Assembly: GCA_937926265.1 (NCBI GenBank)
Contig: CALAZS010000130.1
Location: 2,796 to 66,795, forward strand
DNA: 64,000 nt
From: an uncultured Gammaproteobacteria bacterium
GTDB lineage: Bacteria > Pseudomonadota > Gammaproteobacteria > Chromatiales > Chromatiaceae
Reading direction: 5' to 3'
Of this stretch, positions 1 to 11,592 are shown piece after piece. The notes beneath the pieces were generated by a model, which searched no databases, had not been told where the DNA came from, and saw only the letters and a program-made list of their open reading frames with translations. The position numbers and the translations under genes are program-made. Each line of letters opens with the position of its first letter. Positions within the stretch are counted from its first letter, which is position 1.

Positions 1-851
1 AACAGCGTCTGACCTTCCGAATTACCAAAAAATTCAAGTTGCGCTTTTACTGGCACACCGAATGTAAAACCACTGGTATCAAAGCCCGGCTCAAATTCAG
101 GCATTGGACGCGCATACTCATCACCAGCATCAAATGCTGCGGCAACATTAAAAACCTTGCTTGCATCGTCAATGCAGACCGTAAAAATTGACACACAGTC
201 GAGTGAACGACATGCCGGCACTACACCCGAATTACTCAGCAAACCACGTGAGGGTTTTAAACCTACCAGGTTATTGAAAGCAGCAGGTACTCTGCCAGAA
301 CCCGCGGTATCAGTACCCAGTGAAAAACTTACCTGGCCCAGGGCAACAGCAATGGCCGAACCTGAACTGGAACCACCTGAAATATAATCGGCATTGATAC
401 TGTTTTTACCCGGACCGTATGGTGATCTGGTGCCCACCAGCCCAGTCGCAAACTGATCCAGATTGGTCTTTCCAATCGGGATTGCTCCTGCCTGTATCAA
501 ACAAGCAACCACATAGGCATGACTGTCAGGCTGGTATGCATAGTCCGGGCAGGCCGCTGTGGTTGGCAGATCAGCAAGATCAATGTTGTCTTTTATAGCA
601 AATGGTATTCCATATAAGGGTTTTGACTGATCATCAAAATCACCTAAATCATCAAGATAGCAATCCAGTTGTTCAGGTGACAGGCGACTGATCCAGGCAT
701 TATGGTCAGGCTGTTCATCAATACGCTGCTGAACCAGTTCAATCACGTCTTTGGGTGTAAACTGTTCATCTCTATAGCCGTTGTGAAGCGTATTGATATC
801 CAGGCTGATATTTTTACTGATGTTATTATTCATTTTAGTATGCGTCGTCAT
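1..851 (-). CDS. Allophanate hydrolase (amidase-signature enzyme), N-terminal ~283 codons; 3' end lies beyond window start
   Basis: Absent from the ORF track because it runs off the edge. Reverse translation from ATG at 849-851 gives MTTHTKMNNNISKN...LYGIPFAIKDNIDL...GGSSSGSAIAVALG...GTDTAGSGRVPAAFNN (amidase Gly/Ser-rich signature). Starts 21 nt after the carboxylase stop. Confidence 0.85.
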   Translation of the reverse strand, partial: MTTHTKMNNNISKNISLDINTLHNGYRDEQFTPKDVIELVQQRIDEQPDHNAWISRLSPEQLDCYLDDLGDFDDQSKPLYGIPFAIKDNIDLADLPTTAACPDYAYQPDSHAYVVACLIQAGAIPIGKTNLDQFATGLVGTRSPYGPGKNSINADYISGGSSSGSAIAVALGQVSFSLGTDTAGSGRVPAAFNNLVGLKPSRGLLSNSGVVPACRSLDCVSIFTVCIDDASKVFNVAAAFDAGDEYARPMPEFEPGFDTSGFTFGVPVKAQLEFFGNSEGQTL

Positions 852-872: not shown

Positions 873-3800
873 TTATGACTGTTCAAGTCTTAAAACAATC
901 AAAGCCTGACCAGCTGATATGGAAGCTCCCTGCTGACACAAAATTTCTTCCACGACCCCTATCTCATCTGACTCAATTGGAATTTCCATTTTCATTGCTT
1001 CCAGCACCAGCAGTTCCTGGCCAGGCTCAACCCTCTCACCGGGCTTAACCATTAGCTTCCAGACACTGCCTGTTACCGGTGATGCAATGGCAATGCAGCC
1101 AGCAGGAATTTCAAATGGCGCATCACTGCTGGCTACTTCATCCGGTATTTCCTGATCAAAAGAAGCCTGCCCGGTTTCTTCCCAACGTTGTCTTTCGGCT
1201 TCAAAGGCTGATTGTTGAGTTGACTTAAACGCTTCAATTGACGCTGCATTGTCAGCTAAAAATGCCAGGTACTCTTTTAACTTCAGCGTTGTATTTTCTA
1301 TCTTCAGGCTTGCACGGCCCAGAGGGAAATCGCGTCGCCATTGCTGCAGCTCCTCCCGGGAAACTTCGTAAAAATGTATCTGGTCAAAAAAGCGCAACAA
1401 CCATTGACGTCCATCAATAAAGTCTGCGGTTTGCCGGTAGCGATTCCACATCTGTATTGTACGACCAACAAACTGGTAACCTCCCGGCCCCTCCATTCCA
1501 TAGACACACATATAGGCACCACCGATGCCCACGGCGTTCTCAGGTGTCCAGGTTCGTGCAGGGTTATATTTTGTGGTCACCAGGCGATGACGCGGATCTA
1601 CCGGTGTAGCAACCGGCGCTCCAAGATATACATCACCAAGCCCCATAACAAGGTAACTTGCGTTAAAAACAATTTGCTTTACATCCTCAATTGATTCGAG
1701 ACCGTTGATTCTTCGAATAAACTCGATATTACTCGGGCACCAGGGCGCATCCGGCCGGACTGACTGCATATACTTTTCGATTGCCAGCCTGGTTGATGGG
1801 TCGTCCCATGACAATGGTAAATGGACAATACGGCTGGGCACCTCCATATCAGCAATAGCTGGTAATTCACTTTCAGCCTGCAGCAGCAAATCAAGTAATT
1901 GCATCTGACTGATTTGCTGATTATCAAAGTGCACCTGTAAAGAACGAATACCCGGAGTCAGGTCAATCAGGCCCTTAAGCTGCTTGGCATTAATCCATTG
2001 CATCAGGGCATGTACTCGGAATCTAAGATTTAAGTCCAGAACCTGTGGTCCATATTCTATTAAAAGATTTTCATCGCCTGACTGACGATAACAGACATCT
2101 ATTTGCTGTCCGCTTTTACCTGCTGTTTTTCTAAGTAATACAGGATCGGCTGTTTCGCCCGGCACCAGGCCGTTTATGTCAGGTAATTTATCTGTTTTGA
2201 ATTCATTAATTATTGCCTGCTGATGACATGCAAGACTGGCAGCCTCATCAACTGAAACACAATGAAAACGGATTTTATCTCCCGGCTTGAGCTGTCCCAT
2301 TTTCCAAAGATCAGCCTGAATTATCGTTGCCGGACAGACAAACCCTCCCAGGCTTGGGCCATCAGGTCCAAGAATGATTGGCATATCACCGGTAAAATCA
2401 ATGGCACCGATGGCATAGGCATTATCATGAATATTTGATGGATGCAGTCCTGCCTCCCCGCCATCCTCGCGAGCCCAGGCTGGTTTAGGTCCAATTAACC
2501 GAACACCGGTGCGGCTGGAATTATAGTGAACTTCATAATCTGTCGAGAACAGTGTTTTTATATCTTCCTCTGTAAAAAAATCAGGTGCGCCATGCGGGCC
2601 ATACATGACATTGATATCCCAGTGATCGGGATAACTTGGTATTAAGGTCTGAGGGAGTTTTTCATAATCTATGGCACCTTTATTCTGTTTATATAGCCTT
2701 AAAACATCGCCAACCCTTAATGCCCGGCCCGCGTGACCGCCAAACTTGCCCAGCGTAAATGTAGTTCGCGAACCCATATACTGTGGAACATCAAATCCAT
2801 CTTTAACCGCCAGGTAGGTTCGATTACCCTGACCTTCAATGGTCCGTAACTTTAAAATGCTGCCTGCTTTTACAGGTATAGCTTGCCAGTATTCAACTTC
2901 TTTGCCATCAAGTAATGCTTTCATCTTTGCGCCGGTAAGCGCAATGACAGTATCGGCATTAAATTGCAGGCTGGGGCCGGTTACTGTCATCTCAAGACCA
3001 GCAGCGTCATCATTGTTGCCGAGGATTCGATTGGCCAGACGAAATGCATATGTGTCCATCGGGCCGGATGGTGGCACACCAATATCCCAGTAACCAATAC
3101 GCCCGGGATAATCGACAATAAAGCTCTGAGTGCCCGGCGAAACAACGTCAATAGTTAACGGTGCGAAGTTAAATTTATCCAGGTACCTGGTAAAATGACG
3201 GGCTTTAACAAATACCTCATCCTGGATTATGCTGCCAAGGTACTCAAGGTTTGTTTCGATCCCGTATAAATGTGTGGCTTTTATGGCGTTGAAAAGCTTC
3301 CCCCGAACACTATCGCGATTATTGTCATGAGCAATCAGCTTGGCAATCATCGGATCATAAAAAGCAGGTACCTCACTCCCTTGTTCCACCCATGTATCTA
3401 CACGGACATTGTCTGGAAAACAAACATCGGAAAGCAAGCCTGGGCAAGGCTGAAATTTTTTGCCCGGATCCTCGGCATATATTCGGACCTGCATTGCGTG
3501 ACCATTTGGCTGGTGCTTATAATCAGCAAGAGAGGCATTATCATCGGCAGCAGTCCGAATCATCCACTCAACCAGGTCAACACCGGTAACCATCTCGGTA
3601 ACACCGTGCTCTACCTGTAACCGCGTATTAACCTCAAGAAAATAAAACTCATTGCTTAAAGAGTCATAAACATACTCCACCGTACCGGCTGAGCGATAGT
3701 TTACTGCCTTACCCAGATTAACGGCCGCCGTCATCAGGCGCTGACGTAATTCTTCTGATATGTCAGGTGCCGGGGTTTCTTCTATGACTTTCTGGTTTCG

Positions 3801-4496
3801 CCGCTGTACTGAACAGTCACGCTCCCCAAGCGCCACAACATGACCCTTACCATCACCGAATATCTGGACTTCAATGTGCCTTGCTTTTTCAACATACTTT
3901 TCCAGAAAGATACCGCCCTGGCTAAAATTACTTCGCGCAAGGCGTTCCACTGAATGAAACGCATCTGAAAGCTCTTGTTCTGACCAGCATAGTTGCATAC
4001 CTATACCACCGCCACCAGCAGTGCTTTTCAGCATTACAGGATAACCAATGGCCAAAGCTTCTCGCCTGGCATGATCTAAATCATCAAGCAACCCGGTACC
4101 GGGTAATAAAGGTACATTGTTATCTTTAGCTAATGACCTGGCAGTATGCTTCAGACCAAAGTCTCGCATTTGCCTGGGTGTGGGACCTATGAAAGCTATG
4201 TTGTGCTGTTCGCAGGTTTCCGCAAACTCTGCGTTCTCACTTAAGAACCCATAACCGGGATGAACAGCCTCTGCTCCAAAGTCCTTAGCTACCTGCAATA
4301 TTTTTTGAGTATCAAGATAACTTTCGGAAGCGGGACCTGGGCCAATACATACAGCCTCATCTGCTTCAGAAACATGCAGCGAGGCCTCGTCGGCCTCTGA
4401 ATAAACAGCCAGGGACTTAATCCCCATCGACTTCAAGGTTCGAATTATGCGGCAGGCAATTGTACCGCGGTTGGCAATTAATACTTTTTTAAACAT
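873..4496 (-). CDS. Urea/guanidine carboxylase (biotin carboxylase + KipI/KipA-type carboxyltransferase + biotinyl domain)
   Basis: 1207-aa ORF. N-terminal ATP-grasp biotin carboxylase ([27 protein letters not shown]), large central carboxyltransferase region, C-terminal biotinylation motif LEAMKME. The guanidine-II riboswitch candidate directly upstream favours guanidine as substrate. Confidence 0.9.
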
Positions 4497-4507
4497 AGGA
4501 TAATGCC

Positions 4508-4527
4508 GTAATACTTAGTCGTATTAC
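4508..4527 (-). promoter_or_regulatory. GTAATAC-N6-GTATTAC perfect inverted repeat between riboswitch and carboxylase start codon (RNA hairpin and/or operator)
   Basis: Read directly: 7-bp arms at 4508-4514 and 4521-4527. The same heptamer recurs at 11558-11564 and 11579-11585 in the operon leader. Confidence 0.4.
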
Positions 4528-4541
4528 CAGCTAGTATTAAT

Positions 4542-4588
4542 GGCAGGTCGTCCTACCGTTTTACCACATCGTCGGGTCGTCCCGGCGA
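4542..4588 (-). promoter_or_regulatory. Guanidine-II (mini-ykkC) riboswitch candidate
   Basis: Minus-strand RNA has two hairpins. P1 is UCG-C-CGGG[ACGA]CCCG-A-CGA (4588..4569) and P2 is GGUAGG[ACGA]CCUGCC (4557..4542). Both are GC-rich stems capped by ACGR tetraloops closed by GG/CC, with an 11-nt linker. The element lies 23 nt after the DUF1989 stop and 45 nt before the carboxylase ATG. Confidence 0.75.
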
Positions 4589-4610: not shown

Positions 4611-5249
4611 TCAGTCCCAGATCAGTACTTCAACAGGTGTAGGGTTATAGGCATTACAGGGATTGTTCAATTGCGGGCAATTGGATATTAAAACGATAAC
4701 ATTCATTGCAGCCTTTAACTCAACATATTTACCGGGTGACGAAATACCATCTTCAAATGTCAAACCACCATCCGGTGTGACTGGCACATTCATAAAAAAA
4801 TTAATATTGTGGGTAATATCTCTTTTGCTCATTCCATACTGTTCATTTTCGGCTATAGCCAGCATCCAGCTATCCCGACAGGCATGCATACACTTTTTAT
4901 CCAATGCATAGCGAACCGTATTACTTTCCGTGGCACATGCCCCACCTATGGTATCGTGTCTCCCACAAGTATCCGCGACAATCTCCAACATAAGATTCAT
5001 TTCATTAGAGAGCAGTTTAGTGCCAGTAGTCAGGTAAACATTACCCTGTTCCCTTATGGTATCGATGGCACTGTAGCGCTCACCCGGATCGTCGGCGTTA
5101 TAAAACAAAGTATCAGCAGCCTGGTTACCTTCAAGATCCAGAATCCTCACCGTCTGACCTGCCTTGACAACCTGCATATAGTAATCGCCGGCAAGCACCA
5201 TCTTTCTATCGCAGGCATCTTCAGGTTTAAGGGTACTCTCTTTAATCAT
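4611..5249 (-). CDS. DUF1989 / urea-carboxylase-associated protein (carboxyguanidine deiminase CgdAB-like subunit)
   Basis: 212-aa ORF, paralogous to the upstream 248-aa ORF with an 8-nt overlap. It occupies the conserved position next to the carboxylase. Confidence 0.75.
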
Positions 5250-6000: not shown

Positions 6001-6480
6001 CTATAGCCTTTCTTTATCTTGGATTTCAGGCAGAGGATGTAACGGCGGAATGATAGCTGCTGACATTAGCAACTTACCACTGATAACACCCCTGCAGGTT
6101 TTCATTTTATTAGCGATTAATTTTAATTTTTCTCCCGGCCCCTGAACCAGAATCACCGCCATGGTCTTTTTTTGTTCCAGGTTAACATTCAATACACTAA
6201 TGACTTCATCTATAAATTCATGCATTAAATCTGACAACTTTCTCTGTAACCCTGGTACAGAATAGTCATATATCAGGTTAATTGTACCGGCCATAATTTC
6301 TTCACCTACATCCTGCCTATGTTCAACCAGTTGCTGATGAATCATGTCCGCCATTGCCCGGGAGCGGCTTTCATAACCCTTTTCATCAACCATCTGATCA
6401 AACTCAAGCGCCAGATTCTCGGGTAACGACACACTGATACGACTGACTCTGCGCTGGCTTTTCGGGTTGACCTGCTTCAT
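6001..6480 (-). CDS. NikR-fold (ribbon-helix-helix + ACT-like) transcriptional regulator lacking the canonical Ni ligands
   Basis: 159-aa ORF. The N-terminal RHH (RISVSLPENLALEFDQMVDEKGYESRSRAMADMI) matches the NikR/CopG pattern. The C-terminal domain aligns by eye to the NikR metal-binding domain, but HxH...C is replaced by NVN...T. Confidence 0.65.
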   Translation of the reverse strand: MKQVNPKSQRRVSRISVSLPENLALEFDQMVDEKGYESRSRAMADMIHQQLVEHRQDVGEEIMAGTINLIYDYSVPGLQRKLSDLMHEFIDEVISVLNVNLEQKKTMAVILVQGPGEKLKLIANKMKTCRGVISGKLLMSAAIIPPLHPLPEIQDKERL

Positions 6481-6496
6481 ACCTGCTTCATATATG

Positions 6497-7858
6497 TTAA
6501 AACAAGTGACTGTAACGATCTATTTCCCAGCTTGATATCGTCTGGTGATACTCATTCCATTCCTGGCGTTTATAGCGAATAAACTCATCCCTGAGTGGTT
6601 TGCCAAGCACTTCTGTAACAAGGGGGTCGGCTTCGAACGCATCCACTGCCTCCAGCAGGTTTTTGGGTAAAAACTCTATGCCCCGCTCGGCCCTTTGTTC
6701 CTCGGTTAGTTCGTAAAGGTTATCTTCCTGTGGATTACCCGGATCAATCGATTCTTTAATACCTTCAAGTCCCGCTGCCAATGCCAGCGTTGCAGCAAGA
6801 TAAGGATTAACAGCGCCATCAGCATTACGTGACTCACAACGCCCACCACCCATCGGTACGCGAATCGAATTTGTTCGGTTATTAGAGCCGAAAGAATTGA
6901 ACACCGGTGCCCAGGTAAAATAAGGCATGTCACCCTGGCGTACCAAGCGCTTGTAACTGTTGACGGTAGGAGCAAAGGCCGCACAGAGTGCCTTGCCATG
7001 CTTGATAATGCCGCCAATGAAGTTATAACCCAGCGGGGTTAATCCTAGTCCTTTTGGGTCTTCAGCAGGATCACAGGCAAAAAGGTTTTTACCACTGTTT
7101 ATGTCATATAACGACATATTGAAATGCGCCCCATTACCCGTCTTATCTGCAAAAGGCTTTGGCATAAATGTCGCGATCAGCCCCTCCTGCTTGGCATATT
7201 CTTTCGCCATGAGACGTAAAAATATATAACGGTCACAACTGGTAACTGCATCGGCATACATGAAATCAAATTCGTATTGCCCATTGGCATCTTCATGGTC
7301 GAACGAGTAAAGGTCCCAGCCCAGGGCATTTATTGTCGAGGCCATTTTATCTAGCCAACCAAACTGATCTAGAAAGCCGCGAGCATCGTAACAGGGCTTG
7401 GTTAACTTATCGTCCGGATTTGGAATACTTAATGAGCCATCTTCATTTTGCTTCAATACAAAAACTTCTGCTTCGATACCCAGGTTAAAACCAAAGCCCA
7501 TATCGGCTGCCTGTGATAAAACATTCTTCAAGGCAACACGGGTATTTAATGCATAAGGCTCGCCTTTAAAGGTATTGTCTGCCGGCATCCAGGCCACTTC
7601 AGGCTGCCATGGCAGCTGGATGATATGGTCAAGGTCGGGTAACGATGCAATCTCATCATCGTTAGGTGCCTGGCCAAGACCATCCAGTGCATAGCCGGTA
7701 TACAATTCAGAACCATGCGCCATATGTTCAAGATGTTCAATTGGTACAACTTTACCCTTTGGTACTCCATGAATATCAACATAGGCACCCAGACAATATT
7801 TGACGCCCAATGAAGTAAGCTTATCCTGAATCTCCTTTATTTCCTGCGAACTTTTCAT
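6497..7858 (-). CDS. Glutamine synthetase-like ATP-dependent ligase (GS family, PuuA/GmaS-like size)
   Basis: 453-aa ORF with GS catalytic-domain blocks ([48 protein letters not shown]). ATGA overlap with the upstream creatininase-like gene. Confidence 0.8.
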
Positions 7859-8637
7859 AATTCACTTTCCATGCTGATTGCTTCGGAATAACCAAAGGGT
7901 AATGGCGGGATTTCCTGCATACCTTTTTTGACAGTTTCACTTAAATCTTCAACCATCCATTCAAACAACTGTTGACCTTTATCAGCACTTGCAAGACTTG
8001 GTTTACCTGTTACACCATTTTTGCTGGTTCGGTTTACAGGATGGGAAAATACACAATTTTCAGTTCGGTCTTCATCATCACAATCCTGTATACGATCGGA
8101 ACGGACCATCTTAGGACTCAAGGCCATCATCAACGAGGTTTCAGCGTCATTGGCATGCCAGTCATCAGCATCATGAAAGTGGGCTTGTTTTACACGTTCA
8201 CTGATTGAGGCTGAATTGATCAGGGCGATCATGAAATCATCGTATTCGGCACGCAACATCTCTAAAGCACAACGCAGTGGCGCGAAGTTGGTGACATGCG
8301 TATTAATAATAAACAGACGCTTAAAACCAGATGCATAGACCCAATCGCCAATCTGTTTAACGATATCGATCAGAGTCTTTGGTTGTAAAGCAATCGTTCC
8401 TGGCCAGCGTTTCGAATGACCTATTGAGCAGCCAAAAGATTGAGTTGGCAATAAAGCCGCACCGGTTTTTTCAGCAACAGCTTCACACAAGTGCGATGCA
8501 ATATCGGCATCCATACCGCAACCCATATGTGGACCATGTTGTTCAGTTGCACCCACTGGAAGGATGGCTGTGTCCATACCGTTTGAAATCAATTCACCAA
8601 CCTCTTCCCAGGTCATGGTGTGCCATTTGTTCAGCAT
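7855..8637 (-). CDS. Creatininase-family amidohydrolase
   Basis: 260-aa ORF with family motifs [26 protein letters not shown] and HANDAETS. Its start codon abuts the TAG stop of the ABC ATPase gene. Confidence 0.8.
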
Positions 8638-11545: not shown

Positions 11546-11592
11546 GGACACTCCTCAGTATTACGATTTGATAAAAAAGTATTACCAGGAAT

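Follow-up and report, generated by a model that had tools for sequence, protein, structure and literature searches.

The stretch of DNA analysed here (the window; 64 kb) carries on its minus strand an operon whose genes run in the order ABC importer, creatininase-family hydrolase, type III glutamine synthetase-like ligase, NikR-like regulator, cgdA, cgdB, guanidine carboxylase and allophanate hydrolase, with a two-hairpin element, the candidate guanidine-II riboswitch, between cgdB and the carboxylase gene (Table 1). The gap between these two genes measures 115 nt and is untranslated. The carboxylase is a full-length enzyme with biotin carboxylase, carboxyltransferase and biotin carrier parts, scoring 1925 bits against TIGR02712 (cut-off 1304), and its N-terminus, read from the ATG at 4496, is conserved among orthologues. 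Guanidine carboxylases are distinguished from urea carboxylases by an Asp at the position of Kluyveromyces (K.) lactis residue 1330, which is Asn in urea carboxylases, together with an Asp at 1584 (PMC11410670). In an alignment to K. lactis urea amidolyase (5i8i), GAIDFTGD of the window protein stands against GAINFTGD and GLGDVYLG against GLGDVFLG, both Asp residues being present. The preliminary description of this locus had named the enzyme a guanidine rather than a urea carboxylase, and that assignment is borne out by these two residues and by the neighbouring CgdA, CgdB and allophanate hydrolase. The 1207-aa 'urea carboxylase' and the two 'urea carboxylase-associated' proteins should be annotated as a guanidine carboxylase pathway. 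The second hairpin of the element (P2) lies 45 nt upstream of the ATG of a carboxylase that bears the guanidine signature.

Table 1. Positions of genes, RNA elements and candidate DNA sites in the window.
Feature	Position	Strand	Remarks
Allophanate hydrolase (amidase), start only	1..851	(-)	ATG 851; gene runs past the window; Amidase and AH_C in the gene tables of orthologous loci
Guanidine carboxylase, 1207 aa; putatively regulated gene	873..4496	(-)	Pfam, TIGR02712, Asp signature; ATG 4496
Perfect palindrome GTAATAC-N6-GTATTAC	4508..4527	.	RNA hairpin (-7.5 kcal/mol) or DNA protein-binding site possible
P2 hairpin	4557-4542	(-)	GGUAGG[ACGA]CCUGCC, 6 pairs
Linker P1/P2	4568-4558	(-)	UGUGGUAAAAC, 11 nt
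P1 hairpin	4588-4569	(-)	UCGCCGGG[ACGA]CCCGACGA, 7 pairs and one C.A mismatch
cgdB, DUF1989, 212 aa; directly upstream of the riboswitch	4611..5249	(-)	TIGR03424, 340 bits
cgdA, DUF1989, 248 aa	5242..5988	(-)	TIGR03425, 329 bits
NikR-family regulator; context gene	6001..6480	(-)	PF01402 ribbon-helix-helix and PF08753 C-terminal domain
Creatininase-family hydrolase and type III glutamine synthetase-like ligase	6497-8637	(-)	Ligase TIGR03105, 647 bits
Two GTAATAC heptamers, candidate operator	11558-11564 and 11579-11585	.	Immediately before the SD of the operon's first gene

Guanidine-II (mini-ykkC) riboswitches are defined by ACGR loops, two G-C pairs under each loop and a linker of 7-40 nt, and are translational ON switches (PMC5558903). 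Both hairpins of the window copy carry ACGA tetraloops (4580-4577 and 4551-4548, minus strand), each closed by GG/CC; GGACGACC is present in both, and all of the class-defining nucleotides are intact (16/16). The linker falls inside the class range. After the cgdB stop codon (4613-4611) there are 22 nt, and P1 begins at the 23rd. P1 is predicted to fold with -8.3 kcal/mol and P2 with -7.7 kcal/mol; both hairpins form in the centroid fold, and likewise when the aptamer is folded alone, and the folding z-score of the 133-nt region is -2.65. The two ACGA-loop hairpins with GG/CC closure and an 11-nt linker were already set out in the preliminary description, and our analysis confirms them, with every coordinate correct.

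With the Rfam covariance model in E-value mode, RF01068 (Guanidine-II) aligns end to end with 4544-4588 on the minus strand at 29.7 bits. The match has E=1.7e-4 in a 221-nt search and E=0.0094 across the 12-kb operon, where it was the sole match with E<=1 to any Rfam family. A scan of the whole window at the Rfam default threshold reported nothing; 29.7 bits is slightly below the gathering score of 32 bits for RF01068, which is an operational threshold and not a biological feature. The octamer GGACGRCC occurs three times on both strands of the 64 kb, against 2.05 expected; the loops of P1 and P2 account for two of the three copies and lie on the same strand at a distance of 29 nt. By our own estimate such a pair would arise by chance with a probability of ~0.002 per window.

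Orthologous loci were collected with CgdB as the anchor. The 174 loci comprise 80 from species-representative genomes, 80 from metagenomes and 14 around the closest homologues; none of the metagenome loci exceeded 87% identity, and the closest relatives came instead from look-ups of individual proteins. The motif count, which took in the first 170 loci and the window (171 sequences), asked for two [GA]GACGRC[CT] cores with the start of the carboxylase behind them. A two-hairpin element was found between cgdB and the carboxylase start in 108/171 sequences, amounting to 98 unique copies, in Vibrio, Neptuniibacter, Psychromonas, Colwellia, Alcanivorax, Marinobacterium, Thiodiazotropha and others. 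The two cores are spaced 26-48 nt apart from start to start (median 30). Among the 98 unique copies the P2 core lies a median of 22 nt from the AUG (interquartile range 17-24, range 13-53), whilst anything from 9 to 529 nt separates the cgdB stop from the first loop core in the 55 copies of the first set. Because the first of these distances is tight and the second variable, the element is tied to the start of the carboxylase and not to the end of cgdB.

Moreover, 13 of the 28 relatives scanned with Rfam score 34-44 bits at the orthologous position, above the gathering score. These include the closest relative (L171; 38.3 bits), whose CgdB is 91% identical and whose synteny is that of the window. 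Orthologous copies in other relatives, e.g. L001, L003 and L010, are sub-threshold like that of the window. The Rfam check set in the preliminary description therefore had a divided outcome: the expected family was matched, at a score short of the gathering level, and since relatives pass at the same position while other orthologous copies also fall below it, the sub-threshold score alone is no refutation. Rather, the RF01068 model misses true members at the cgdB-carboxylase position. For annotation, this means that the default threshold overlooks real guanidine-II copies at a well-defined place.

Covariation was scored for 95 aligned copies on two 6-pair stems and compared with 500 shuffles. 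Paired cells made up 91.1% of those observed, against 68.5% after shuffling and 25-52% when the partners were slid. The covariation score was 0.573, compared with 0.161 for the shuffles, of which none (0/500) reached the observed value, and at most 0.146 with partners slid. Compensatory changes involving both sides occur in 10 of the 12 pairs, and in either stem only the loop-closing G-C pair is invariant. The identification as guanidine-II made in the preliminary description is therefore upheld by the 16 conserved nucleotides, the fitting linker, the orthologous conservation and the covariation of the stems. Comparative sequence evidence gives good support for an element that is a guanidine-II riboswitch and occupies the position customary for it in operons of guanidine carboxylase.

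The outer of the two conserved closing pairs varies in a few copies. It is changed from G-C to A-U (AGACGACU) in P2 of L001, L081 and L082 and in P1 of L087, L089, L099, L108 and L126, and in P2 of L170 it is G.U (GGACGGCU). Counted over the alignment, A-U stands at this position in 6/95 P1 stems and 3/95 P2 stems, a compensated change at a position described as class-conserved. Insertions of 160-530 nt separate the cgdB stop from P1 in L002, L006, L022, L029, L048, L056, L058, L062 and L076, and some of these hold long GC-rich inverted repeats resembling REP-like elements. The distance from riboswitch to AUG is unaltered in the loci with such long insertions.

A guanidine-II switch between cgdB and gca has been studied by in-line probing, binding guanidine with a KD of 93 uM and methylguanidine equally well (PMC12508155), and the same layout of cgdB, class II switch and carboxylase is on record for three enterobacteria, Raoultella, Erwinia and Klebsiella (PMC12186494). 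The position inside the operon, which had been put forward as unusual, is thus the published standard and is shared by the 108 element-bearing sequences counted above. Like the cgdB-gca switches of Vreelandella boliviensis, Raoultella terrigena, Klebsiella michiganensis and Erwinia rhapontici, the window copy has two ACGR-loop hairpins, each with two G-C closing pairs, and a short linker. In those four organisms, as in the window, it sits between the gene for carboxyguanidine deiminase B and that for guanidine carboxylase, with allophanate hydrolase behind (PMC12508155, PMC12186494, PMC5558903). However, those four operons begin with a guanidine-I riboswitch and that of the window does not; the window copy also differs in its score slightly below the Rfam threshold, in having no downstream Shine-Dalgarno (SD) sequence and in the 20-nt palindrome between P2 and the AUG.

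A further comparison is offered by Amphritea atlantica (L174), whose CgdB is 87% identical to that of the window and whose operon is a canonical one with both guanidine-I and guanidine-II. The order of ABC importer, cgdA, cgdB, guanidine-II, carboxylase and hydrolase is as in the window. Unlike in the window, the importer genes of L174 are preceded by a guanidine-I riboswitch (90.6 bits) and its P2 is followed by an AGGUGA SD; the window, for its part, contains inserted genes of the creatininase-family, type III glutamine synthetase-like and NikR-like kinds. Taken together, the class II switch between cgdB and carboxylase was already published and this copy is an ordinary new example of it with a few odd local details. 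The preliminary description was right on the element and the enzyme and overrated the novelty of the position. For riboswitch biology this instance adds little, as both position and gene association are published.

The expression platform is somewhat atypical, lacking an SD and holding an inserted palindrome. The anti-SD duplex at the carboxylase start reaches only -1.7 kcal/mol, compared with -5.6 to -8.5 kcal/mol for the permease, ATPase, creatininase-family, cgdA, cgdB and hydrolase genes of the operon. An SD is likewise absent from 24/98 unique copies, including the whole clade closest to the window. The palindrome is missing from L161, L166/L171, L001/L172 and L170, where P2 is followed by the AUG after 22-24 nt, and only 7/98 copies have a distance of at least 40 nt from P2 core to AUG. 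Its 20-mer is unique in the window even when 3 mismatches are allowed, on which ground a dispersed repeat was rejected. We conclude that it is a lineage-specific 20-nt insertion whose link to the riboswitch is doubtful. Of the 'unusual expression platform' of the preliminary description, then, the missing SD stands, in the company of the other SD-less copies, and the extra hairpin reduces to an insertion that the closest relatives do not have. That about a quarter of the carboxylase-linked guanidine-II copies are SD-less means that textbook SD-unmasking is not the whole story for the class.

A search for the OFF state yielded no pairing with statistical support. In the most attractive one, the end of the linker and the 5′ arm of P2 would mask the start codon (AAACG-g-UAGGA with UCCUA-UGUUU); this helix falls 4.6 kcal/mol short of the P2 state in stability, and we retain it as no more than one candidate. 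Analogous complements to the start region are seen in L001, L004, L006, L058 and L170 (e.g. GGCG:CGCC and GGCGG:CCGCC). Over 98-99 copies, depending on the segment, cognate duplexes showed no gain in energy over non-cognate ones (p 0.10-0.52), nor did they in the SD-less group (p 0.69), and across all tests of aptamer parts against the start region no significant excess complementarity was detected (p 0.1-0.9). Pairing of the 5′ flank of P1 with the spacer or start region gave no excess over non-cognate pairs; pairing of the linker segment with the same region gave only a small excess, partly trivial from its overlap with the arms of the P2 stem. Folding with P1 and P2 forced was identical to free folding and left the accessibility of the start site unchanged, since the unconstrained minimum-energy structure already contains the two hairpins; the loop-loop complex is beyond the reach of secondary-structure prediction. 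We likewise dismissed an internal promoter or terminator, there being neither a minus-strand promoter-like site nor a terminator in the gap between cgdB and the carboxylase gene.

Rfam scans detected no guanidine-I riboswitch in the window operon or its leader, nor in L171, L170, L172 and L012, all of which include the 5′ end of the operon. Guanidine-I does stand before the importer genes in 10/14 loci of one Rfam-scanned set, in addition to L174. It is also present in six loci that have a window-type ABC transporter and no NikR-like gene, and in L017 and L042, where the transporter genes are divergent, it lies directly before cgdA. The gene order of the window recurs in L171, L170, L172/L173, L001, L007 and L161-L168, and NikR-like homologues occur in L001, L007, L012, L015, L017, L037 and L161-L173. 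Side by side, the operons with the NikR-like gene in line (window, L012, L170, L171 and L172) have no 5′ guanidine-I, and related operons without that gene (L032, L033, L046, L066, L072, L074 and L174) have guanidine-I before the transporter genes. From this distribution, the transcriptional guanidine-I riboswitch seems to have given way to a regulatory protein.

The NikR-like protein scores 110.6 bits against NF003381 (cut-off 105) and aligns to Pyrococcus (P.) horikoshii NikR at E=4e-31. At the nickel site, the window reads VLNVNLEQKKT where P. horikoshii NikR (2bj1) reads SLHVHMDEHNC and Helicobacter (H.) pylori NikR THIHMDEHNC. Asn, Asn and Thr of the window thus replace the His-x-His...Cys of NikR, positions that we take to be its high-affinity nickel ligands, and Thr stands for Cys in 21/21 operon-linked homologues. 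A role as a canonical nickel sensor is therefore unlikely for this regulator, judging by these residues. A near-palindromic pair of heptamers, exactly 21 nt apart from start to start, was found in six loci: the window, L171 (1656/1677), L170 (896/917), L172/L173 (889/910 in L172), L012 (483/504) and L017 (4706/4727). The consensus is GTAWTAC, the second copy in L012 being GTAATAT. In the five loci with the leader read, the pair is directly upstream of the SD of the first gene; for L017 we give positions only. A spacing of about two turns of the DNA helix would suit a tetrameric NikR, and we hypothesise that the pair is a candidate operator of the NikR-like protein.

The palindrome ahead of the carboxylase start consists of the same heptamer twice, 13 nt apart, and the 10-mer CTGGTAATAC of the palindrome region (4508-4530) is identical to a 10-mer of the leader (11579-11588). 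As this heptamer is found again in the leader of the operon, the palindrome may have nothing to do with the riboswitch. It may instead be a further copy of the candidate site for the NikR-like protein and not a riboswitch platform, with a spacing that differs from that of the leader pair. Sequence alone cannot tell a DNA site from an RNA hairpin at this place.

We consider it highly probable that the mRNA between cgdB and the guanidine carboxylase gene holds a functional guanidine-II riboswitch. That the RNA binds its ligand and switches ON in response, and what its OFF state looks like, we infer largely from what is established for the class. The operon would be transcribed as a single unit, since neither a minus-strand promoter-like site nor a terminator lies between cgdB and the carboxylase gene. 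By analogy with the class mechanism, free guanidinium would enter both ACGA loops, upon which P1 and P2 would dock loop to loop. Docking would free the 11-nt linker and the flanks of P2 from pairings that would otherwise impede the ribosome at the start region, which is A/U-rich and has no SD (UCCUAUGUUUAAAAAA). Translation of the carboxylase, an enzyme that consumes ATP, and probably also of the allophanate hydrolase encoded after it, would then take place only with the substrate present, the outcome being an ON switch at translation initiation. Such action on initiation, as described for the class, is the most likely one. The Pseudomonas aeruginosa model (Reiss and Strobel 2017) is a translational ON switch of the kind proposed here, in which the ribosome-binding region is proposed to be paired with the linker and the flanks of the hairpins until docking of the loops pulls them apart. 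However, that model masks an SD, whereas the window has none and we found no conserved masking helix. Against a functional switch one may set the score of 29.7 rather than 32 bits, the C.A mismatch in P1, the lack of an SD to unmask and the 45 nt between P2 and the AUG, a distance owed to the inserted 20-nt palindrome. The unchanged accessibility of the start site in the folding comparison, the lower stability of the candidate OFF helix and the lack of significant excess complementarity to the start region count on the same side.

In a different mode of action, the aptamer would bind guanidine but have its main effect on the transcript: by modulating RNase cleavage or Rho-dependent termination within the intergenic gap, it could change the mRNA level of carboxylase and hydrolase. 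No SD is available for masking, the untranslated gap is long, folding gives no ligand-independent masking of the start site, and translational and mRNA-level control are often linked in riboswitches (PMC12508155). We nevertheless regard control at the transcript level as unlikely: the aptamer is not followed by an intrinsic terminator, the class is described as a translational switch (PMC12186494, PMC5558903, PMC12508155), and the tight distance between P2 and AUG in the orthologous copies points to action at the start site.

That the aptamer is a decaying relic, its hairpins persisting without regulating the carboxylase after a protein regulator took over, strikes us as quite improbable. The class-defining nucleotides are intact at all 16 positions, the stems are fully paired save for the one mismatch, and the NikR-type relatives L171, L170 and L161 keep the aptamer, with scores of 38-40 bits in the two that were scanned with Rfam (L171 and L170). 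Decay would nonetheless account for the mismatch and the score below the gathering threshold, and for an insertion that moves P2 away from the AUG; guanidine-I has been lost, and a NikR-like regulator with a conserved candidate operator is present. Nor is there much to be said for two hairpins that arose by chance or as a generic structured repeat with no ligand sensing. Hairpins that are short and rich in GC occur frequently, and Rfam at its default threshold reported nothing, but the improbable octamer pair, the sole match with E<=1 in 12 kb and, above all, the orthologous conservation and compensatory changes across many genera already contradict this reading, which we hold to be hardly credible. 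A functional guanidine-II riboswitch acting on translation initiation thus remains our preferred reading.

Tentatively, and with more doubt than confidence, we propose that the window, L171, L170, L172/L173, L012 and L017 form a subtype of the guanidine carboxylase operon. In this subtype, guanidine-I would have been replaced by a NikR-family repressor without nickel ligands that binds two GTAWTAC sites 21 bp apart at the first gene, leaving guanidine-II as the last RNA sensor, with an SD-less platform. The palindrome would be a second site for the protein, and the added genes would feed a substituted guanidine into the pathway. If true, protein and RNA control would meet at one junction, with the palindrome between riboswitch and carboxylase start. 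A NikR-like regulator devoid of the nickel site, together with a conserved candidate operator in operons that have no guanidine-I, is the lead likeliest to yield novelty at this locus.

The creatininase-family hydrolase and the ligase lie between the importer and the regulator; the same observation extends to L170 (6024-6734) and L172 (6004-6714), and some relatives add a C26-type glutamine amidotransferase. By their families, the added genes suggest a gamma-glutamylation or hydrolysis route that may feed a nitrogen compound into the guanidine pathway. Full-text searches of a paper collection found no description of such a route. Lastly, the octamer CTGGTAAT has 15 copies in the window against 1.9 expected, a number that 0/100 shuffles reached. 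The sites include 11581, 11597, 19835, 28800 and 60324, and codon or peptide bias or a dispersed motif could underlie them.
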